IMG/VR virus record: IMGVR_UViG_3300021431_000114
Coordinates: 56,141-76,140 of that record
Reading direction: 5' to 3' (one strand)
Source: an uncultured virus (IMG/VR IMGVR_UViG_3300021431_000114)
Lineage: Duplodnaviria; Heunggongvirae; Uroviricota; Caudoviricetes
Length of the DNA: 20,000 nucleotides
Each line of letters begins with the position of its first letter. Within the stretch, counting starts at the first letter, position 1. Below are positions 2,876-12,126 of the stretch, in pieces. Made by a program: the position numbers and the translations under genes. The notes under the pieces are model-generated. The model was given only the letters and a program-made list of their open reading frames with translations. It was not told the DNA's origin and searched no databases.

Positions 2876-4465
2876 TTACAGTATATCCAATAGTCCTTCT
2901 GCATCCAATCCCTCGCCGTTCTGTCCGAGCACTTCTTCAAGTATGACGTAGCGGATTGCGTCGATGCAGTTGTGTACAAGCAGGCCGTTGGCGTAGTACT
3001 CATGCTGTTGCGCTACTTCCAAGTCAAAGACTTGGGCCTCGCCTGCGTCCTCTGCAAAGATAGCTTTAATTTCCCGTGCTGTTTGCTCGTTGCGCTTTGT
3101 TTGTGTAAACACAACGTCGCCTGCGTGCAAACACGCGATTTTTTGCCACTTTGCAGCCGTTCTTACAAGGTGATTGGGCGTTGCCCGAACAACTATCTGC
3201 GCATCGTCAAAAACAAGCGTGTAACGCTGAATTTTGCGCTTTCCGTTCTTCCACAGCTTTGTTACGCGCTTGTAGCCTGCGCTCGTCAGCACCAAATCGT
3301 CCGTCGTGATGTTGGCAATACGCTTTGCGCCCATCGATGTTGTTACAAGCGTGTCTGCTGTGAAGCAGTGGTTGAAGGCATCTACTGGCTCGTTGAGCCA
3401 CTTGCCGTTTTTGTCTCGTCTGTACACGTAGCTTTTCAGTTCTTTTATTAGGTTGACACTGCGACGCGTCACGACAAGCTTGAACTGCTGCATCTTCTGC
3501 AAGCCAGCCTTTACGCTGCCGGGGTACTTCTTCACGCCGTGAATGTCAATGCCTGTGTTGTAAATTTCGTCTATTTCTCGCGGCTCTGCGCTGTCAGCCC
3601 ACACCTTGGGCATCCATACTTGCTGCTGCTTAAGCTCCTTGATGATGTCCTCCGTACCCATCTGCGTGCGGTAGCAAAGCTCGTCCAAGTAGATTGTCTT
3701 GCCCACAATGCTGACAAGCACAATGGCCGTCGGGTCGTTGGTGTAGCCAAAGTCCAGTCCAAGAAAGCGGTGTCGGCGTGCCTGGGGCGGCAGCTCGTCC
3801 ACGATTTCAAACGACTTGAAGATACGCCCCTCAATGATTGCACGCTGCCCAAGCCCGTACACTTGCCACAGCGAGGGCGATGTGTCCTTAAGTTCCTCAA
3901 TGCTGTCAATGACGCTTTGCTCAAGAAACGGATTGTCCTTGTATGTGCTGATGAAGAACTTCGTGCGGGAGCTGTTGTTTACTTTGGTAACTATCCAGTG
4001 GTCTTCGTCAAAGCTCGGGTTGTAGTCTATCAGTGTGAACAGCGTGGTACGGAGCTTAAGCTGCGTCCACTCGTCAAAGGACAGCTCGTTTGCTTCGTTT
4101 ACGTACAGTATCATGCGCTTACGACCACGCAAACGCTGATCATCCGTCGCAGGGAAGAACTCTATCCAGCTGCCGTTAGGAAACGTGTAAATGAAATCCG
4201 TCAGGTTCATGCACTTGTCGCTCCACTGACCCATGCGCTGCATGATGTCCTTGAAGTCGCGGAACACAGTACCTTTTAACGCAGGGCGCGTGCCACGAAC
4301 AACTGCAACAGTAGTACCGGGAAACGACAGACAGCGCACGATAAGCCAAATGACGATGGTGTACGTCTTGCTGCTTCGTGCGCTACCTTGTGCCGACACT
4401 GTGCTGTAGCCCGCGTCAAAGGCACTCTGTATAACGTTGTAAACCCTGCTGACTTGTATCTTCAC
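2876..4465 (-). CDS. terL: Terminase large subunit (PBSX-like) containing a mini-intein; likely GTG start at 4465
   Basis: Walker A-like QGSARSSKT, LRG, Walker B YVNEANE, DYNP, STYKDNPFL, nuclease GLDFGYTNDPT, ADSAEP and C-terminal NH/CIDAIRY. Confidence 0.95.
   Translation of the reverse strand: MKIQVSRVYNVIQSAFDAGYSTVSAQGSARSSKTYTIVIWLIVRCLSFPGTTVAVVRGTRPALKGTVFRDFKDIMQRMGQWSDKCMNLTDFIYTFPNGSWIEFFPATDDQRLRGRKRMILYVNEANELSFDEWTQLKLRTTLFTLIDYNPSFDEDHWIVTKVNNSSRTKFFISTYKDNPFLEQSVIDSIEELKDTSPSLWQVYGLGQRAIIEGRIFKSFEIVDELPPQARRHRFLGLDFGYTNDPTAIVLVSIVGKTIYLDELCYRTQMGTEDIIKELKQQQVWMPKVWADSAEPREIDEIYNTGIDIHGVKKYPGSVKAGLQKMQQFKLVVTRRSVNLIKELKSYVYRRDKNGKWLNEPVDAFNHCFTADTLVTTSMGAKRIANITTDDLVLTSAGYKRVTKLWKNGKRKIQRYTLVFDDAQIVVRATPNHLVRTAAKWQKIACLHAGDVVFTQTKRNEQTAREIKAIFAEDAGEAQVFDLEVAQQHEYYANGLLVHNCIDAIRYVILEEVLGQNGEGLDAEGLLDIL
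2969..3367 (-). mobile_element. Mini-intein (133 aa, Hint domain only) in TerL
   Basis: Begins CFTADTLV (block A), has ATPNH (block B TxxH) and VFDLEV (block F), and ends NGLLVHN followed by Cys+1. Removing it restores DAFNH-CIDAIRY. Confidence 0.93.
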
Positions 4466-4547
4466 GTTCCTATTCCTATATACGTGCGTATGTGCGTGCA
4501 AGCGTGCGCATCATTTTCGTGCAGTCACGAAAATGGTAGGCTGCACG

Positions 4548-5408: not shown

Positions 5409-6020
5409 CTACTCAATCTTAGTGTTGTTGACTAAGTTCATGAACTCGCTGCGTACAGCTGCGTCCGTGAGGAACAGCCCTTTAAGGCAGGAGTTTGACA
5501 TAATGCCCTTCTTGCGTGCTCCGCGTATTTCCTTGCACGTGTGATGGGCTTTCATTACGCAGGCAATGCCCAGCGGAGCGCACTCTGCTGGCACGTCGCT
5601 TGTCAGTGCTTCCTCAATCATATTCACTACGTCATGCACCAAACGCTCCTGTATCTGCATGCGTGCAGCACAGTAGTCCACGACGCGGGCAATCTTGCTC
5701 AAACCGAGTATCTTGCCGTTGGGGTGTGGAATGTAGGCAAAGAAGTACTGCCCCATGAAAGGCAGCACGTGGTGCTCGCACATTGAAGCAAAGTCGCCCG
5801 TGTCCGTAACCATTTGGTCGCACACAAGGTTGTCCTTGCCATTGTCAAACACTGTAATCTTGGGCTTCTGCGCCGGGTCGTAGCCGCGAAACAGCTCTTT
5901 CCACATACGCACGACACGCTCAGGCGTGCCTTGCAGCCCAGCACGGTTCGGGTCTTCACCCACATACTCCAGCAGCTCGCGCACATGCTGCTCTGCTTGT
6001 TCCTTTGTCAGCTTTGCCAT
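5409..6020 (-). CDS. folE: GTP cyclohydrolase I (start ATG 6020, MAKLTKEQ)
   Basis: GEDPNRAGLQGTPERV, SMCEHHVLPF, GLSKIARVV, QIQERL and HTCKEIRG motifs. Confidence 0.95.
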   Translation of the reverse strand: MAKLTKEQAEQHVRELLEYVGEDPNRAGLQGTPERVVRMWKELFRGYDPAQKPKITVFDNGKDNLVCDQMVTDTGDFASMCEHHVLPFMGQYFFAYIPHPNGKILGLSKIARVVDYCAARMQIQERLVHDVVNMIEEALTSDVPAECAPLGIACVMKAHHTCKEIRGARKKGIMSNSCLKGLFLTDAAVRSEFMNLVNNTKIE

Positions 6021-6024
6021 AGTG

Positions 6025-6363
6025 CTATTCCTCGTCAAGTTTGTAAGTAGCAACGTTGCTCTCGCTTTCCTGCACGTCAGCGCGGTAGCACTGCGGAATG
6101 GTGTCAACAATCCACTTTGCAATGTTCTCGGCTGTCGGGTTGAAAGGCAGCAGCTCGTTAAGGTTGCCGTGGTCGAGCTTTCCGTGTATGGCACGCTTGA
6201 TAAGCGCGAAGTCTGCAACCATGCCGTCCTTGTTCAGCTCCTTTGCCTTGCAATAGACGGTGACAATCCAGTTGTGGCCGTGCAAGTTTGCGCACTTGCT
6301 TTCGTAGGACAGCTGCAAGTGATGGCATGCAGCTATTTCCATTCTTTTCTTTACGTAGTACAT
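6025..6363 (-). CDS. queD: 6-carboxy-5,6,7,8-tetrahydropterin synthase
   Basis: CANLHGHNW (CxxxHGH), GMVADF, LDH, NPTAENIA and VQES motifs. Confidence 0.95.
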   Translation of the reverse strand: MYYVKKRMEIAACHHLQLSYESKCANLHGHNWIVTVYCKAKELNKDGMVADFALIKRAIHGKLDHGNLNELLPFNPTAENIAKWIVDTIPQCYRADVQESESNVATYKLDEE

Positions 6364-6413
6364 AGTCTTTATACTTTTACAGTTCTTTCCAATTCTTCTA
6401 ACACTTGAAAGTT

Positions 6414-7088
6414 TTACACGCCGCGCTTGTCCGCGTCCCAGATGAACTTGTGGATTTGCAGCTGCATTTTAACCCCGTTAAGGCGATTTTGAATAAGGAA
6501 CGATGCAATGTCTTGAAGCTCTATCGTTCCGAAGCATGCGCTCACTAAAACGTTGGTACGTGCAAGCAAGTTGTTTTGCTCGACAACGTACTTCATAATC
6601 TGCAAGTCGTGCAAGCTGCCCACAACAAACTTAACGCAGTCCGTCTTGTTGAGGTAGGCATAATTGCTTTGCTTCATCAGCTTTTGGTATGCGTTGCCTG
6701 CGCACTCCGTCTTGTAGTCCAGCGTTAGGCAAGGGCGATAAGACAAAGGCAGCTCCGCAAGCTCTGCAACGGACATACTGCCGTTTGTCTCTATCTCTAC
6801 CCGGTAGCCGTTGATTGCAAGCTGCAAAACAAGTTCCTTGATGTTCGCCTGCATAAGCGGCTCGCCACCTGTCAGCGTGACGTTCTTTACGTTCTGCTGC
6901 TGCACGTACTCCAGTAGCTCCTTTGCAGTCAGTTCCTCGTACTGTTCCGCTTTGTCGTAAGAATACTTGCTGTCGCAGTAGTCGCAGCGCAAGTTACAAC
7001 CGAAGAAGCGGATGAACACGGCAAGCTCGCCACTGTGCAAGCCCTCACCGTTAATGCTTACGAATTTCTCTACTACTTTGTACCGCAT
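6414..7088 (-). CDS. queE: 7-carboxy-7-deazaguanine synthase (radical SAM)
   Basis: FVSINGEG, FIRFFGCNLRCDYCDS (CxxxCxxC), TLTGGEPL, IETNGS and QLQIHK motifs. Confidence 0.95.
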   Translation of the reverse strand: MRYKVVEKFVSINGEGLHSGELAVFIRFFGCNLRCDYCDSKYSYDKAEQYEELTAKELLEYVQQQNVKNVTLTGGEPLMQANIKELVLQLAINGYRVEIETNGSMSVAELAELPLSYRPCLTLDYKTECAGNAYQKLMKQSNYAYLNKTDCVKFVVGSLHDLQIMKYVVEQNNLLARTNVLVSACFGTIELQDIASFLIQNRLNGVKMQLQIHKFIWDADKRGV

Positions 7089-7093
7089 ACAGA

Positions 7094-7762
7094 TTACTCC
7101 TTGTAAACAGTCATGTCTTCAACGCCTGCTGCGGCAAATGCAGCCTTACGGTTGCGGCAGCTGTCACACACACCACACTGGCACTCTCCGTTCTCGTAGC
7201 ACGACCACGTCTCTGCCAAGATGTCCTTGTCTTTCTCGTAGGCATACTTGATAAGGTCTGTTTTGTGCAGCCCAAGCAGCGAAGCGGTTTCAATCTTTAC
7301 GTGCTTCTCGCCACGGAACGTGCCCATATCCATTGCAAGCTCAAAGGCTTTGAAGAACGCGGGCGAGCAGTCGGGGAAAGCATACTCACCGTTGACAAGC
7401 ACGCAATCGTCCATGTGGCTTCCCAGCACGATCTTGTCAAAGCCGTTGGAATACGCGTACACCATAGCGATTTGCAGGAACATAGCATTACGCAAAGGCA
7501 CGACTACGCTTTTTTTGTAGCCCTGCTCTACTGCAACATCGTTTGTCAGCTGGTTTTCCTTGCCAAAGATGTGCTTAAGCGAGGAAATATCCATGCGCTC
7601 AAAGCCGAGGTTGTACTTGCTTGCAAGCTTCTCTACCACCTCGCTTTCCCGTTTTGCTTTCTGACCGTAGTAAAAGGTCATAAGCGTGGTGTCCTCGTTT
7701 ACGTAACGGAGTGCCATAGACACCGAATCAAGCCCTCCCGAACAAATAACTAATACTTTCAT
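7094..7762 (-). CDS. queC: 7-cyano-7-deazaguanine (preQ0) synthase
   Basis: PP-loop SGGLDS, YGQK, VPLRNAMFL, FPDC and TWSCY...CGVCDSC. There is no glutamine amidotransferase fusion. Confidence 0.95.
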   Translation of the reverse strand: MKVLVICSGGLDSVSMALRYVNEDTTLMTFYYGQKAKRESEVVEKLASKYNLGFERMDISSLKHIFGKENQLTNDVAVEQGYKKSVVVPLRNAMFLQIAMVYAYSNGFDKIVLGSHMDDCVLVNGEYAFPDCSPAFFKAFELAMDMGTFRGEKHVKIETASLLGLHKTDLIKYAYEKDKDILAETWSCYENGECQCGVCDSCRNRKAAFAAAGVEDMTVYKE

Positions 7763-7774
7763 ATTCGTTGTTTT

Positions 7775-8536
7775 CTAAAAGTTTACGTCTGCATACTTTT
7801 GGAACTTTACCCATTCAAGGAAGTTATGCGTCATAACCTCTTTGTAATTGCGTATCTTTGTTCCCTCGGGTCTGTTGCAGGTCTTTACTTTGCCTGCCTG
7901 CAAATCAAACTTGCAATACCCTCCCGATATGTTACCCATGAGCCAACTGCTGCTGTCAACGCTGTCGAAGCGGAAGTTGCCAAGCTTGGAGCTTGTATAG
8001 CCAAGCCCGTGTATCTTTGCGTTGTTCTTGTGTGCAGTAGCAATAAACCATGGAAAGTATTTCTCTATCACGCTTGACGGCAGGCCGTCAGTGAGTATGC
8101 CGCCGAAAGCCACGTATGAGTAGTTTTTGCACATCCATTCAAAGTACTGCTTGCCACGCGAGAGGTGAAACACTGGAATAGAACGCTTGCCCGTAAGGCT
8201 CTCCAGCCGTTCACGCAGTTGCTCCACCTTTTCCAGCCCGACAATGCTGTCAATGTCAAGCTCAAAGAAGTGCTTGATGTCGTATTTGTTTATGAAGTCC
8301 GCGTAGGCTTCCGTGTACTTCATCCAGTCCGTATCGTCCTTGCCCTTTACCATGTAGGTGAACGCTCCGCTGTCAAGCAGGAAATTGTCGTTAGCCGTCC
8401 AAATGCTTTCGGGAGCTTTCTTGTTGCTCAAAAGGTAGTAGTAGCTTTCGAGCAGGTACACACTGCGGAAGTCTATGTCGGAAAACTCCCGAATGTTCTT
8501 GTACTGATTTATTGCTGCTGCCAGGAATACACGCAT
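7775..8536 (-). CDS. TGT-fold (DpdA-like) guanine transglycosylase, probably acting on DNA
   Basis: LLDSGAF, FELD, IPVFH, AFGG, IHGLG and DSVDSSSW parallel the TGT catalytic motifs. It lacks the tRNA-TGT Zn-binding Cys cluster and lies next to the preQ0 genes. Confidence 0.8.
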   Translation of the reverse strand: MRVFLAAAINQYKNIREFSDIDFRSVYLLESYYYLLSNKKAPESIWTANDNFLLDSGAFTYMVKGKDDTDWMKYTEAYADFINKYDIKHFFELDIDSIVGLEKVEQLRERLESLTGKRSIPVFHLSRGKQYFEWMCKNYSYVAFGGILTDGLPSSVIEKYFPWFIATAHKNNAKIHGLGYTSSKLGNFRFDSVDSSSWLMGNISGGYCKFDLQAGKVKTCNRPEGTKIRNYKEVMTHNFLEWVKFQKYADVNF

Positions 8537-8538
8537 AC

Positions 8539-9129
8539 CTATTTCACTTTTACGTTTTCGTAGCCTGCAAGTGCAGCTTCAATGGCTGCTTTAATTTCTG
8601 CCTGCTGTTCCTCCATTTCGGGCGGGAACGTGACTTCAATCTTCAAGTCCTTTACCTTTTCCTCTTTGGGCTTTTCCTCAAAAAGCTTGTCGATGTCAAC
8701 GTCCTCGTTGCCACCAAGGAAAGAGCAGTCAAGTCCCCAATCCTGCACGTCGCCCGTGTCCCACTCATTGGCAATCAGCTCCCAATCAATGTTACCGAAA
8801 GCCACGTTGTCCTTGATGGTGTACTCGCACAGTTTTTCTACGGGCGTGTCCTGCTTGAACACATAGCAGGGCAGCTCCTTGAAGCCAAGCTCGCGGCAGG
8901 CACGCAGGCGCATGTTACCGCCAATGACTACGTAGTGCCCGTTTTGCAGCGGATAGACAAGCAGCGTGCGTGCTTCCAGCAGCTCGGGCGCGTCCTCAAT
9001 GCTCTTTTTAAGTGCTTCGTAACGCTCGTCCTTTATCCAGCGAGGATTTTTGGGCAGTCCTTCAAGCTGTCCGCTGTTAAGCTCCAGCAGACTGATGTCG
9101 AGCGTCTGATACGGAATGTTGTTACTCAT
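8539..9129 (-). CDS. ParB/Srx N-terminal domain protein (start ATG 9129, MSNNIPY)
   Basis: KNPR, LKKSI, VIGGNMRLRAC and IKDN motifs typical of phage ParB-like proteins found near terminase genes. Confidence 0.85.
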   Translation of the reverse strand: MSNNIPYQTLDISLLELNSGQLEGLPKNPRWIKDERYEALKKSIEDAPELLEARTLLVYPLQNGHYVVIGGNMRLRACRELGFKELPCYVFKQDTPVEKLCEYTIKDNVAFGNIDWELIANEWDTGDVQDWGLDCSFLGGNEDVDIDKLFEEKPKEEKVKDLKIEVTFPPEMEEQQAEIKAAIEAALAGYENVKVK

Positions 9130-9150
9130 GCGTTTTACTTGATTTTGAAA

Positions 9151-9189
9151 TAAACTACGCAAAAGTAAGCAAAACTAAGCAAAATAAGC
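9151..9189 (-). promoter_or_regulatory. Promoter of the ParB-que-packaging operon: -7 box TACTTTTG (9167-9160) embedded in about 10-bp AAAnTAAGC repeats
   Basis: Matches Bacteroidota TAnnTTTG about 30 nt upstream of ATG 9129. Plus-strand units are taaactacgc, aaaagtaagc, aaaactaagc and aaaataagc. Confidence 0.65.
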
Positions 9190-9228
9190 AGATTTTAGGC
9201 TGCTGTGTGTAAACAGTAAACACAACGA

Positions 9229-9528
9229 GGGCGCAAAGCCGTATTGCCTTGCGCCCATACCTAACCTAAATAAACATCTATATTACACCGTGGGAAAAAA
9301 GTTTCTTTGAAAGAAGCGCACACCGCTGTATGCGCTTGAAGCAGTACGTAATGCTTCTATATAGCTTTTGGATAGCTTTCTTTTGGGAGTGCAGTACCGG
9401 CTTCACAGCCAACTGCACGTGTAGTTATTTGCCTATGTTCACAATCTATGAGTTATTATTGATGAAAGGTGTTGCTTCGAAAAAGCAGCTGCGTTTCACA
9501 ACGGGGCTGCTGGTGTATGAATAAAAAG
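9229..9528 (-). ncRNA. Candidate structured sRNA array: four main hairpins separated by unique segments
   Basis: Hairpins at 9229-9256, 9314-9337, 9389-9418 and 9484-9511. G-U wobbles and GUGA tetraloops occur on the minus strand. Segment 9366-9379 is complementary to the repressor mRNA leader. Confidence 0.55.
9480..9511 (-). terminator. Terminator-like hairpin downstream of the DnaA-C-like gene
   Basis: The minus strand reads AGCAGC-CC-CGTT-GTGA-AACG-CA-GCTGCT-TTTT. Confidence 0.5.
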
Positions 9529-9873
9529 TTAATCAGTTCGTTGCTTATTACTAAGCGCGTCTTGTTTGGATTGAAGATAATCGACTATTTTGTTGTAGAG
9601 ATTTGTCGTTACAGCGTCGCGCACTTCCAGATAGCCCTTGTAGTGCTTGGCAACAGTTATAACGTTGGCACGGCTGCGCTTTATCGTTGCTGCTGCATCC
9701 GTTGGGTGTATGCCTGCCAGCTTCGTTACAGCACAGTACAGCCCGCGAGCAAGGTTTACGTCGCGTGACTTCGGTGCATAGACAAGCTGCTCGCTGCTGA
9801 TGTTGCAGACTGCACAAACAGCCTGTGCCACCTGCTCGGAGCTGCAAACAATGTCTAACTTTGGTACTGTCAT
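9529..9873 (-). CDS. HTH DNA-binding protein resembling DnaA domain IV; putative regulator
   Basis: VCAVCNISSEQL...KSRDVNLARGLYC...AATIKRSRANVI follows the Bac_DnaA_C pattern. Confidence 0.7.
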   Translation of the reverse strand: MTVPKLDIVCSSEQVAQAVCAVCNISSEQLVYAPKSRDVNLARGLYCAVTKLAGIHPTDAAATIKRSRANVITVAKHYKGYLEVRDAVTTNLYNKIVDYLQSKQDALSNKQRTD

Positions 9874-9898
9874 TTACGCGTTTTCTGTAATTTTGCGT

Positions 9899-9929
9899 CA
9901 AAGGTAAGCAAAATTAAGCGAAACTAAGC
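9899..9929 (-). promoter_or_regulatory. Promoter of the DnaA-C-like gene: -7 box TACCTTTG (9906-9899) within three 10-bp AAAnTAAGC repeats
   Basis: Plus-strand units are aaaggtaagc, aaaattaagc and gaaactaagc, the same architecture as 9151-9189. Confidence 0.65.
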
Positions 9930-9941
9930 GTAAATAAAGTA

Positions 9942-11114
9942 TTATTTAGTATCATTTAACAAATAGTCTATCACGGCACGGTTGGCTTCGTCCACCTTTT
10001 TATTGCTTGCGCGTATGTACACGCGTGTAACGTTTGCGCCCGAAGTCTGCGAATGCCCAAGCGCACGGCTGATGGTGTCGTCGGGAATATCAAGGTTGTA
10101 CGCAAACGTTGCCCACGTGTGGCGTGCCCAGTACAGCGTAAGGTTATCAATGCCTATGCGCTTGCCCATTTCGCCCAGCCAGTAGTTACATTTGTTGGCG
10201 AACATGTTGTAGCGCGAAACGCTGTCAAACCAAACAAGCAGGTGCTGTTTGCCGCGATACTTGTCAAGGAGTGCCTGCGCTTCCGGCTCAATCTTTATGT
10301 CGTACAGCTTGTGTGTCTTGCTGCGCAAATACTGCAAGCGTCCGTCCGTCGGCTCTGCGAGGTCTGCAAGGTCTGCAACGTTAATACCAATAAGGTAGAA
10401 CGTGAGCAGAAAGCAGTCCTTGTAACGCTGTTCGTGCGCTGCACAAGGCAACGACATGAAGCTGCGCATCTGCTGTAGGCTTAAGCTGCGCTTCTGCGTT
10501 TCCTCGTGCTCCATTTCAAACTTTCGGAAAGGGTAGCACGTAATGGTGTCCTGCTTGATGGCGAAGTTGAACACGGCACGCAGGTTACGGAAGTGTATGC
10601 TGCGCCCGTTGGGCTTCGGGCTGTACTTCATGAGGAACAGCTTGAAGTCATTGAGCCAGCGCACCGTCATTTCCTCAAACGTAAGGCTGTTCCAGTCCGC
10701 AAACTTGCCCACAAGGGCTGCTGTGCGTGCATAAATTCGCTGTGTGCTGCTGTTTTGCTTCAACGCGATAAACTGCTCGTAGGTGTCCCGAAACAAGTGC
10801 GGCAGCTCGTTCTCATCCTCTTTTTGCAGCATGGCTATGATCTGCTTGTCTGTCAGCGAGCGCATTTTGCCGCTTGCCTGCAACTGCAACAGCTTTGTTT
10901 CCGCGTCGCTTTGCCGCTGGCGCAAGACAGCGTTGAGCACCTTGCGGTTTGCCATGTTGACAATCTGCTGCGTCCGCTCGTTCCAGTCCTGCGGCAGCAC
11001 GTCTATCCCGACAGGCACATAGAACGTGTGCTTGCGGGCTACAGCAAGCTTCAGCGGATAAGTGCCGTCCTTGTGCTTGTAACGTGTGTCAAGCCGTACT
11101 GATACCTTTACCAT
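9942..11114 (-). CDS. int: Tyrosine integrase (Bacteroidota type, with arm-binding, SAM-like and catalytic domains)
   Basis: N-terminal LDTR..KDGTYPLKL, then FRNLRAVFN, YLRSKT, YWARHTWAT, ALGH and VTRVY. Adjacent to attP. Confidence 0.93.
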   Translation of the reverse strand: MVKVSVRLDTRYKHKDGTYPLKLAVARKHTFYVPVGIDVLPQDWNERTQQIVNMANRKVLNAVLRQRQSDAETKLLQLQASGKMRSLTDKQIIAMLQKEDENELPHLFRDTYEQFIALKQNSSTQRIYARTAALVGKFADWNSLTFEEMTVRWLNDFKLFLMKYSPKPNGRSIHFRNLRAVFNFAIKQDTITCYPFRKFEMEHEETQKRSLSLQQMRSFMSLPCAAHEQRYKDCFLLTFYLIGINVADLADLAEPTDGRLQYLRSKTHKLYDIKIEPEAQALLDKYRGKQHLLVWFDSVSRYNMFANKCNYWLGEMGKRIGIDNLTLYWARHTWATFAYNLDIPDDTISRALGHSQTSGANVTRVYIRASNKKVDEANRAVIDYLLNDTK

Positions 11115-11148: not shown

Positions 11149-11175
11149 TTTGCAACTTTTTTGCAACTTTTTCGC
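11149..11175. repeat. Candidate integrase arm-type site: tandem TTGCAACTTT, 11-bp period
   Basis: TTTGCAACTTTTTTGCAACTTTTTCGC, with a near-identical copy at 11360-11385. Confidence 0.8.
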
Positions 11176-11241
11176 CCCAAACAGTCCTAAAATGTCACTC
11201 TTTGCCTGCCTTGCAGCAGCAGCGGTTTTCTTTGTAAATCG

Positions 11242-11297
11242 CGGAGAGACGGGGATTCGAACCCCGGATGCGCTTTTGACGCATACACGCTTTCCAG
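11242..11297 (-). pseudogene. 3' half of tRNA-Ser(GGA), forming the attP identity block
   Basis: The minus strand reads CTGGAAA-GCGTG-T-ATGCG tcaaaag CGCAT-C-CGGGG TTCGAAT CCCCG-TCTCTCCG: anticodon loop, long variable arm, T arm and 3' acceptor strand. The 5' anticodon stem and D arm are absent. Confidence 0.9.
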
Positions 11298-11359
11298 ACC
11301 TATCTACTCCGCTTTCTAATTGGCTGTTAATCAATAAAATAAAAATCGCTTTGCGAGCG

Positions 11360-11385
11360 TTTGCAACTTTTTTGCAACTTTTCGC
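11360..11385. repeat. Candidate integrase arm-type site, second copy
   Basis: TTTGCAACTTTTTTGCAACTTTTCGC, a direct repeat of 11149-11175 on the other side of the tRNA fragment. Confidence 0.8.
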
Positions 11386-12012
11386 TTATTTCAGTGACAT
11401 CAGCATCAGCACTCTATACCATGCGCGAATGTCCTCTTTGGCAATCGTGAAATCGTCAAAGTCGGGGTTGATGCTGCGGCACACTATACGGCTGTCATCC
11501 TCTTTGCAGGGGAACACGTTCTTTACAACTGGGCCGTTTACCGTGTCAAGCTCGTAAGTCCTGCCCCACTCGATGAACGCTGCTTCGTTGATGCGCTTGA
11601 CGAGTATCTTGCAGCCGCTTGGGTATTCGGGAGCCATGCTGTCGCCCGTTATCGTGCTGGCGTGGCTTGCATCCTTTATCGGGCTTACGACCATTTCACA
11701 TTCGTATTCGTGTACCTGTGCTTCAAAGTCCGTAGGACTGCCACCCTGCACACTGATGGGCAGCAGCGGAACATAGACTGCATCATCCTTACCAGCCGCA
11801 AACAAGTGAGCAGGCATCATTTCGCCCTCGCCCGTTTTCAGCCAGTCAGCATTGACTTGCGGGAACTGCTCACGCAGTGCTGCAAGCACCTTTGCGCTCG
11901 GCGACTTCGTATTCTGCGCGTAGGCATTGCTAACGCCGAGCTTCTTCTGTAACTGCGCAACACTTAAGCCAAGCGCATACGCGAGTTTGCTAAATCGTTC
12001 CTTAAAATCCAT
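11386..12012 (-). CDS. CI-like repressor (HTH plus S24 peptidase); likely start ATG 12012
   Basis: N-terminal HTH with VNADWLKTGEGEM, and GDSM (Ser) and VVK (Lys) S24 motifs. Divergent from the early genes. Confidence 0.9.
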   Translation of the reverse strand: MDFKERFSKLAYALGLSVAQLQKKLGVSNAYAQNTKSPSAKVLAALREQFPQVNADWLKTGEGEMMPAHLFAAGKDDAVYVPLLPISVQGGSPTDFEAQVHEYECEMVVSPIKDASHASTITGDSMAPEYPSGCKILVKRINEAAFIEWGRTYELDTVNGPVVKNVFPCKEDDSRIVCRSINPDFDDFTIAKEDIRAWYRVLMLMSLK

Positions 12013-12085
12013 AAAAAAGCTATCCAAAAATCTTAATAATATATAATTTTGTATAGTAATTTATAGGCAAATTTAGTTTTTTATA

Positions 12086-12126
12086 GTAACTTTGCCCTTG
12101 CATTACGTTTACGGGTGCAAAGTTAC
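12086..12126. promoter_or_regulatory. Face-to-face promoters of the genetic switch: TAACTTTG on plus (12087-12094) and on minus (12125-12118)
   Basis: Inverted repeat GTAACTTTGC...GCAAAGTTAC. Both halves match the Bacteroidota -7 consensus. Confidence 0.75.

Follow-up and report, generated by a model that had tools for sequence, protein, structure and literature searches.

We examined a 20,000-nt window of DNA, the last 20 kb of the 76,140-bp record of an uncultured Caudoviricetes virus (IMG/VR IMGVR_UViG_3300021431_000114, here G000), and within it the non-coding gap at 9130-9528, which lies between a ParB-like late operon and the gene of a 114-aa protein. The gap appears to be a composite element, and its central part is probably an antisense RNA, either borne by a 3' untranslated region (3'UTR) or processed, that silences translation of the phage's own S24/CI-like repressor. 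Judged from the sequences of related phages, the comparative support for an antisense regulator at this position is unusually clean. The initial annotation of this DNA had described the interval as an array of hairpins alternating with several segments antisense to translation starts.

The repressor gene (11386-12012, minus strand) encodes a Peptidase_S24 protein of a CI-like family (phrog_4). A short-word BLAST search of the gap against the whole phage returned one outstanding match, between the plus strand at 9366-9379 and the minus strand at 12029-12016, which are identical. Transcribed from the gene strand, the gap reads AAAGCUAUCCAAAA here, the exact complement of the repressor mRNA from -17 to -4 (AUG at 12012). 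We refer to this minus-strand segment (core 9366-9379, 14/14 Watson-Crick pairs, with an extension to 9385) as seed A, and to roughly the final 20 nt of the repressor 5'UTR together with the AUG (minus strand, 12010-12035; core 12016-12029, AUG 12010-12012) as target A. Across the 76-kb genome, the non-promoter part of the gap (9196-9528) has no match longer than this 14-mer. Seed A lies in a spacer, S2 (9338-9388, minus strand), between the hairpins H2 and H3.

Relatives of the gap were few. The whole gap recurs at 99% identity in one 86-kb contig, G002 (represented by L002, L003 and L042), and among 59 loci the sole other match was partial (126 nt, 77% identity) and fell in L043, which derives from the 87-kb complete record G001. 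A metagenome scan added three loci. The 114-aa protein of L062 is 98% identical, L064 has the same gap sequence as L043, and L063 represents a third lineage whose 114-aa protein is 59% identical. The comparative sample therefore comprises three lineages, or four distinct sequences. We compared 37 upstream regions from 39 ParB-related loci and found the arrangement only in L003, the sole contig among these loci with a BLAST match to the gap; scans of viral contigs with the pattern of hairpin H4 and with profiles of the 114-aa protein and the repressor returned only the same two relatives.

Complementarity to the start of the repressor was kept in every lineage, spanning 14-15 nt at positions -21 to -4 of the repressor AUG. 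The longest Watson-Crick helix between each gap and its own repressor start measured 14, 14, 14 and 15 nt in G000, G001, G002 and L063, respectively, while non-cognate combinations of gap and repressor gave helices of 7-10 nt. Dinucleotide shuffles of the gap reached the observed length in 2/5000, 0/5000, 2/5000 and 1/5000 cases for the four sequences. The repressor mRNA sites themselves differ by lineage yet stay complementary (TTTTGGATAGCTTT, GCATTTTTGAATAG and GCGTTTTTGAATAAA). Two substitutions in the leader between L043 and L063 are matched by two in the gap, and one core substitution between the window and L043 is likewise matched, with the helix extended on a different side in each lineage. 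In the window clade the duplex continues to the repressor AUG with the use of a G-U pair, and in G002 the one mismatch of this extended duplex is mended by one substitution in the gap, giving approximately 24 pairs across the AUG.

Local duplex energies for seed A were -27.9 kcal/mol in the window, -32.2 in G002, -18.6 in G001 and -19.6 in L063, compared with -8.4 to -15.5 kcal/mol for non-cognate pairs, and the mean unpaired probability of the seeds ranged from 0.51 to 0.91. A sliding duplex-energy scan of whole genomes with S2 was uninformative, being dominated by long, loop-rich duplexes with GC-rich coding sequence; the same scan ranked the repressor site second in G001.

A second seed overlaps the first. 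Seed B (9363-9374, minus strand, 12 nt) is antisense to G000:C1:49155-49166 (minus strand, outside the window), and in G000 it is complementary to positions -11 to +1 of an open reading frame (ORF), also of 114 aa, at genome positions 48811-49155. This target-2 ORF is equipped with a -7-type box of its own, and the next, overlapping ORF encodes a 78-aa membrane protein. The cassette (L086 1578-2155, equal to G000:C1:48578-49155, minus strand) stands among oppositely oriented genes behind a promoter-like box of its own. In G001 the complementarity involves another 12-mer, located immediately after seed A, and covers positions -18 to -7 of the target-2 ortholog; the two orthologs are 62% identical, and the 12-nt sites differ in sequence. 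We then scored 923 candidate start pairs common to G000 and G001 by the perfect helix between the gap RNA and each phage's own start region, taking the minimum over both phages. The repressor scored 14 and target 2 scored 12, while all other pairs scored 9 or less. The target-2 protein is modelled as a helix, a beta-hairpin and a helix (pLDDT 87.3), its homologs form eight clusters in public data, and searches for it found no Pfam or PHROG family and, by fold, only weak prefoldin-like rows with E of at least 0.24. One 157,862-bp contig encodes both a relative of the target-2 protein and a relative of the 114-aa protein next to the gap.

The gap folds into a series of hairpins. Folding of the 400-nt gap gave z = -4.27 for the minus strand, with 0/100 shuffles as good, and z = -2.55 for the plus strand, with 2/100 as good. 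The stop codon of the upstream gene is immediately followed by the U-rich element S0, TTTTT(A)TTCATAC (9512-9528, minus strand), conserved in all three lineages, and by hairpin H1 (9484-9511, minus strand, -13.0 kcal/mol). H1 is capped by a GUGA loop, with an internal loop or bulge below it; a C.C mismatch in the hairpin is conserved, and the basal stem covaries. The loop stays within the GNRA class (GUGA, GCGA or GAGA) across the lineages, and a U5 tail follows the hairpin in the window clade only, two of the three lineages having no U tail. H2 (9389-9418, minus strand, -16.4 kcal/mol), just 5' of the antisense segment, has an invariant GUGA loop above an internal loop or bulge and no U tail in any lineage; a variant turning G-C into G-U at 9399 is present in L003, L062 and the RNA contigs described below. 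Within S2, a small hairpin, Hx (9338-9357, minus strand, -5.7 kcal/mol), occurs in the window clade and is absent from L043 and L063.

Two further hairpins follow on the same strand. H3 (9314-9337, -14.2 kcal/mol) together with its U-rich tail (9295-9337) is a candidate terminator of the antisense-bearing RNA, and H4 (9229-9256, -20.9 kcal/mol), whose GC-rich stem of 11 bp carries an invariant AAUACG loop and is followed by a U-rich tail, reads as a terminator that insulates the late promoter. Both scored as terminator-like and are followed by U-rich tails in all three lineages. A GC-rich hairpin followed by a U run, as in intrinsic terminators, was found at H1 (window clade only), H3 and H4, although the terminator scan is weak on its own, with five terminator-like sites in the window region against 3.0 expected in shuffles.

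MAFFT misaligned the gaps. The hairpins were compared by folding each sequence separately and aligning the folds by position. Each relative showed the same hairpin series in the same order. Of the 35 base pairs compared, 18 were invariant; both partners had changed in 15 and one partner in 2, and a single pair was broken in one clade. For H1, 8 of 11 pairs had changed on both sides with 95.5% of cells paired, its covariation score was reached by 0/500 shuffles, and slid controls collapsed. Four of the five apical pairs of H2 had changed on both sides between clades, as had two of the eight pairs of H3, with one more changed on one side. These compensatory changes and the kept loops indicate that the hairpin structures are under selection. 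When the pairs were read in the minus sense, G-U occupied 15 of 175 cells (6 pair-by-lineage cases), against 3 cells of A.C (1 case), a bias which argues for an RNA of the gene strand.

Much of the initial annotation's description of the structure was borne out by this comparison. All four of the minus-strand hairpins it had listed, H1 to H4, were predicted at those positions, the two GUGA tetraloops it had described above an internal loop are those of H1 and H2, and G-U pairs possible only on the minus strand, which it had noted in two hairpins, are needed in H2, H3 and H4 of the window. Its reading of the interval as structured minus-strand RNA agrees with the fold z-score, the covariation and the G-U bias, and the covarying hairpins that it had suggested looking for in relatives are present, as the 15 doubly changed pairs show.

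Searches for other kinds of element in the interval were negative. No match at gathering score to the Rfam 15 covariance models was found in the whole window, so the Rfam search that the initial annotation had recommended yielded no family, and on 9050-9650 only two miRNA-model matches with E of about 4 were returned. No tRNA or tmRNA was found in the window, and ARAGORN reported no whole tRNA there. No conserved ORF was found in the gap; the longest on the gene strand has 46 aa and starts from GTG, and a 64-aa ORF on the plus strand is not kept in L043.

RNA contigs from four metatranscriptomes of four studies (X15, X17, X19 and X20 among them) cover parts of the region. The 114-aa gene was covered in three of the four, by contigs at 9422-9875, 9516-9872 and 9508-9871, all of which end at 9871-9875, near a set of tandem repeats at 9899-9933. 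In X15, the contig at 9422-9875, which bridges H1, another at 8733-9251 and one more over 9399 together cover most of the gap, and an X20 contig covers the middle of it (9290-9440). The body of the integrase gene (10117-11019) had zero depth in all four runs, which points to RNA rather than plain carry-over of DNA. Absence of cover, for instance over the repressor region in X15, X17 and X19, carries no information alone.

From these features a mode of action can be proposed, for which we infer the strand, ends and origin of the RNA as well as the direction and timing of regulation. A gene-strand transcript would most likely start at the tandem-repeat promoter of the 114-aa gene, pass H1, then H2 and the single-stranded S2, and end at H3 or H4. 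The antisense RNA would be either this long structured 3'UTR or a small RNA (sRNA) cut from it. Seed A would pair with the last 14-25 nt before and across the repressor AUG, seed B would pair with the start region of the second own-promoter gene, and pairing over these initiation regions would block the translation of both. The transcript of a late-type promoter would thereby shut off new repressor synthesis, most simply after the onset of lytic transcription, and would favour commitment to lytic growth. Such an RNA would have to act in trans, because the gap and the repressor lie at opposite ends of the prophage after integration.

Several observations weigh against an antisense RNA of this kind. 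The RNA contigs show neither strand nor ends nor level, and two of the three over the 114-aa gene stop at H1 (at 9516 and 9508). Given these stops and the U5 tail of H1 in the window clade, much of the transcription may end before S2, and no promoter motif was seen by eye between H1 and H2. The seeds are AU-rich. For seed B, the G001 duplex is weak at -13.6 kcal/mol against -12.3 for the non-cognate one, and L043 and L063 share the same seed B. In addition, 9366-9379 and 12016-12029 are the same sequence in opposite orientation approximately 2.6 kb apart, an arrangement that also suits a role at the level of DNA.

Such a role could take the form of a protein-binding or recombination site present in two inverted copies, such as a distal and a proximal operator looping the approximately 2.6 kb, or of the ends of an invertible segment that holds the repressor, integrase and 114-aa genes. 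Covariation of the two copies would be expected for operators or recombination sites alike, and a tyrosine recombinase is encoded between them. By eye, however, the sites are not palindromic, and the two target sites in G001, GCATTTTTGAATAG and TAATTAAACTTT, differ from each other and match adjacent parts of S2, unlike one protein site. Both targets fall exactly at start regions and on the mRNA-sense strand, and the extended duplex of the window clade contains a G-U pair. All four independent contigs holding both sites (G000, G001, G002 and L063) show one orientation, the RNA contigs contain no joints, and the attachment site with its arm repeats appears to lie elsewhere. We therefore regard the two DNA-level forms, taken together, as unlikely. 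Chance matching of AT-rich sequence in an ordinary intergenic region of terminators and a promoter is strongly disfavoured and seems the least probable account of all. Terminator-like and promoter-like sites are indeed present, and 12-nt matches arise about eight times per genome by chance; against this, shuffles reach the observed length in only 0-2 of 5000 trials for each of the four sequences, pairing is cognate-only in three lineages with different sequences, and the same two orthologous genes alone stand out among the 923 start pairs.

The full array envisaged by the initial annotation, in which S0, S1, S2 and S3 would all be guides freed at the hairpins and would have further targets in the host, draws support from S2, which does behave as a guide, and from S0 and the S3 block ATATAGATGTTT, which are conserved between diverged gaps. 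The proposed antisense relation of the spacers to translation starts holds for S2, far above shuffles, but fails for S0, S1 and S3, for which no phage target could be identified. Outside S2, no complementary stretch of at least 11 nt from the non-promoter gap falls at a credible phage start, and the two S2 targets are the only orthologous start pairs to score above 9 nt. The start-like spots highlighted at 9517, at 9435, 9448 and 9462, and at 9290 have no complementary partner of at least 11 nt at any phage start. A repeated segment-plus-hairpin cassette was not recovered either; the hairpins are not copies of one unit, and a repeat search finds only 10-bp promoter repeats. H4 and the adjoining element H5 also drop out as array units, H4 being terminator-like and H5, with the 10-bp repeats, probably belonging to late-promoter DNA. 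We thus give the complete array little credence. Hardly probable, in our view, is an antitermination or insulator leader, in which a nut-like S0 with H1 would modify the polymerase to allow read-through of H3 and H4 into the late operon, or the hairpins would simply shield the late genes from transcription arriving from upstream. Three terminator-like hairpins do stand in series before a long late operon, sequence conservation is seen in S0 and apical H1, with covariation at the base of H1, and the X15 contigs jointly cover most of the gap. Yet this account leaves the two covarying start-region complementarities of S2 unexplained and could coexist with an antisense function; no antiterminator protein was identified, and the late operon has promoter-like repeats of its own downstream of H4.

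If silencing by the S2 segment is accepted, a broader and distinctly more tentative proposal would be that of an RNA module for commitment and specificity in temperate phages of Bacteroidota, in which two fast-evolving seeds in the 3'UTR of a DnaA-domain-IV-like late regulator would silence in trans a CI-type repressor and a second, maintenance-type gene. The pair of seed and target diverges in the manner of immunity specificity, so full pairing of each RNA would be limited to the repressor leader of the same phage.

The 114-aa gene (9529-9873, minus strand) lies directly upstream of the gap, which would be its 3'UTR. An AF2 model of its protein is all-helical (pLDDT 90.7), and in a Foldseek search the top matches were DnaA DNA-binding domains, with 3pvp_A first (TM 0.76/0.89, rmsd 1.5 Å over 96 columns) and 1j1v_A next. 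The model thus identifies it as a stand-alone DnaA-domain-IV-like DNA-binding protein. An L7Ae-like lead for this protein (E 0.12-0.9) was rejected, the all-helical model fitting DnaA domain IV.

Upstream of this gene are tandem 10-bp repeats, GCTTAnnTTTG (9899-9933, minus strand), a candidate promoter of the antisense-bearing transcript, and three copies of the repeat (9150-9194, minus strand) form the promoter-like region of the late operon that encodes ParB-like, DpdA, QueC, QueE, FolE, terminase and portal proteins. The tandem motif was found at only three places (four overlapping matches) on this strand of the 76-kb genome. It also stands before the structural operon at genome position 34,303, where it is preceded by a T-run hairpin and two TGTTTACAC boxes. 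Sites with 10-bp-phased repeats were recorded at 9150-9194 and 9899-9933 of the window and at G000:C1 ~34354-34380 and 42797.

Downstream of H4, the inverted or direct repeat H5 (9202-9226) holds one such box, TGTTTACAC, at 9207-9215. G000 contains 7 copies of this box (1.13 expected), all of them on the strand of the late genes, and G001 contains 9 (1.37 expected); the copies are often paired at 22-23 bp spacing upstream of tandem promoters, and the box resembles the DnaA-box consensus. H5 is probably a DNA site for a late-gene regulator and not an RNA hairpin. H5 and the 10-bp repeats may be late-promoter DNA with the 114-aa protein as their regulator, and the combination of this repeat class, the TGTTTRCAC boxes and the 114-aa protein suggests a phage-specific activator system for late genes. 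A pair of TGTTTRCAC boxes spaced 22 bp apart was noted at 3100-3133, in the intein-coding part of the terminase gene described below, and G001 has a box pair of equal 22-bp spacing at a similar distance downstream of its gap.

Two 12-nt elements were recorded separately. The block ATATAGATGTTT in S3 (~9262-9285) is shared by the window and L043 though the spacers have otherwise diverged. No phage target was found for S0 or for this block, and their conservation between otherwise diverged gaps implies that they have some function. The 12-mer ATTACTATACAA occurs in the repressor leader region (12051-12062) and in the divergent control region by target 2 (L086 ~2303-2320), with one further copy carrying one mismatch, and G001 has the one-mismatch form four times. 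It may be an operator; a search for operator motifs resolved none.

The genes from position 1 to approximately 12,030 all lie on the minus strand. Early-type genes, in rightward orientation, begin at 12115. The minus-strand late operon includes the genes for the portal, the large terminase and a DUF5681 protein, as well as those for FolE, a QueE-like radical-SAM protein and QueC, a DpdA-like transglycosylase (7775-8536) and a ParB-N-like protein (8539-9129). A tyrosine integrase (9942-11114, minus strand) precedes the repressor region. The integrase, the CI-like repressor and the combination of minus-strand late genes with rightward early-type genes mark the phage as temperate. Its promoter-like motifs fit the Bacteroidota -7 consensus, and the public runs that hold its sequence are labelled gut metagenomes, with goat, sheep or cattle as the source of several. 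A search of bacterial genomes with the integrase gave one irrelevant locus and no integrated copy or host.

An attachment site (attP) in the gap was considered and rejected. A host-like segment with arm repeats lies at 11150-11385, and nothing comparable occurs in 9130-9528. In the interval between integrase and repressor, 11241-11297 is covered by RNA contigs of three runs, with a depth of up to 22.7 and unrelated flanks on both sides. By eye, these 57 nt are the reverse complement of the T-arm, long variable arm and acceptor end of a tRNA, and TTGCAACTTTT occurs twice on each side of them. The region 11150-11385, with 11241-11297 as its core, is the probable attP.

Further features of the late operon were noted. 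Behind the ParB-N-like gene, FolE, the QueE-like protein, QueC and the DpdA-like protein constitute a 7-deazaguanine DNA-modification cluster (5409-9129). The ORF of the large terminase (2876-4501, minus strand) has a mini-intein-like insert at ~2968-3346 with Hint-type Pfam matches below the cut-offs; by eye, its translation starts with Cys and ends with His-Asn followed by Cys. Within the intein-coding part, 3314-3332 is a 19/20 match to the first half of hairpin H4.

Phage antisense RNAs provide several points of comparison. The c4 RNA of P1 and P7, reportedly the subject of a 1990 paper by Citron and Schuster, is a structured phage RNA with short exposed segments that block translation of a phage regulatory message; it acts on the antirepressor operon, maintains lysogeny and is cut from its own operon transcript upstream of its targets. 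The predicted gap RNA would resemble it as a phage-made structured RNA whose exposed segments face a start region and in which small differences set specificity between relatives. Unlike c4, it would target the CI-like repressor itself, approximately 2.5 kb upstream, along with a distant second gene, and no relation between the two in sequence or Rfam was found. The CI RNA of P4 causes transcription of its own operon to terminate prematurely and takes the place of a protein repressor. It shares with the proposed RNA a small processed form, one seed region for two phage-message sites and a part in lysis-lysogeny control, whereas the present phage does have a protein repressor, whose translation start is the predicted target. 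To our knowledge, the host phylum has neither the enterobacterial machinery nor the RNA chaperones of most sRNA paradigms.

Among the systems covered in one review, OOP of lambda and sar of P22 are phage antisense RNAs that tune the lysis-lysogeny regulators cII and ant (PMC12197685). These are described there as cis-antisense RNAs with full complementarity, while the gap RNA would be encoded elsewhere on the same strand as its targets and would use seeds of 12-25 nt. The same text presents VpdS of VP882 as a trans-acting phage sRNA (PMC12197685), and CisR is described as acting on cep of CTXphi (PMC13250501). As far as these texts go, both share with the gap RNA a trans-acting seed in or after the 3' end of a coding gene, followed by a terminator hairpin, and targets among phage messages; both act with Hfq in Vibrio, whereas the gap RNA comes from a Bacteroidota-type phage and is argued from comparative evidence only. 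In the literature searched, which comprised main texts outside supplements and subscription papers, we found no phage RNA described as pairing in trans with the beginning of the message for the CI-type repressor of the same phage.

On the present sequence comparisons, the gap element is real and conserved and is best placed as a variant of known phage antisense regulators. The control of lysis and lysogeny in gut and rumen Bacteroidota phages is almost unexplored. Natural compensatory variants exist in three lineages, and complementarity to a phage's own leader that covaries between relatives offers a simple comparative signature for finding such RNAs in metagenomic phages. If confirmed, the element would represent a new wiring of the switch, in which a phage RNA acts by direct pairing with the start of the message for the phage's CI-type repressor.

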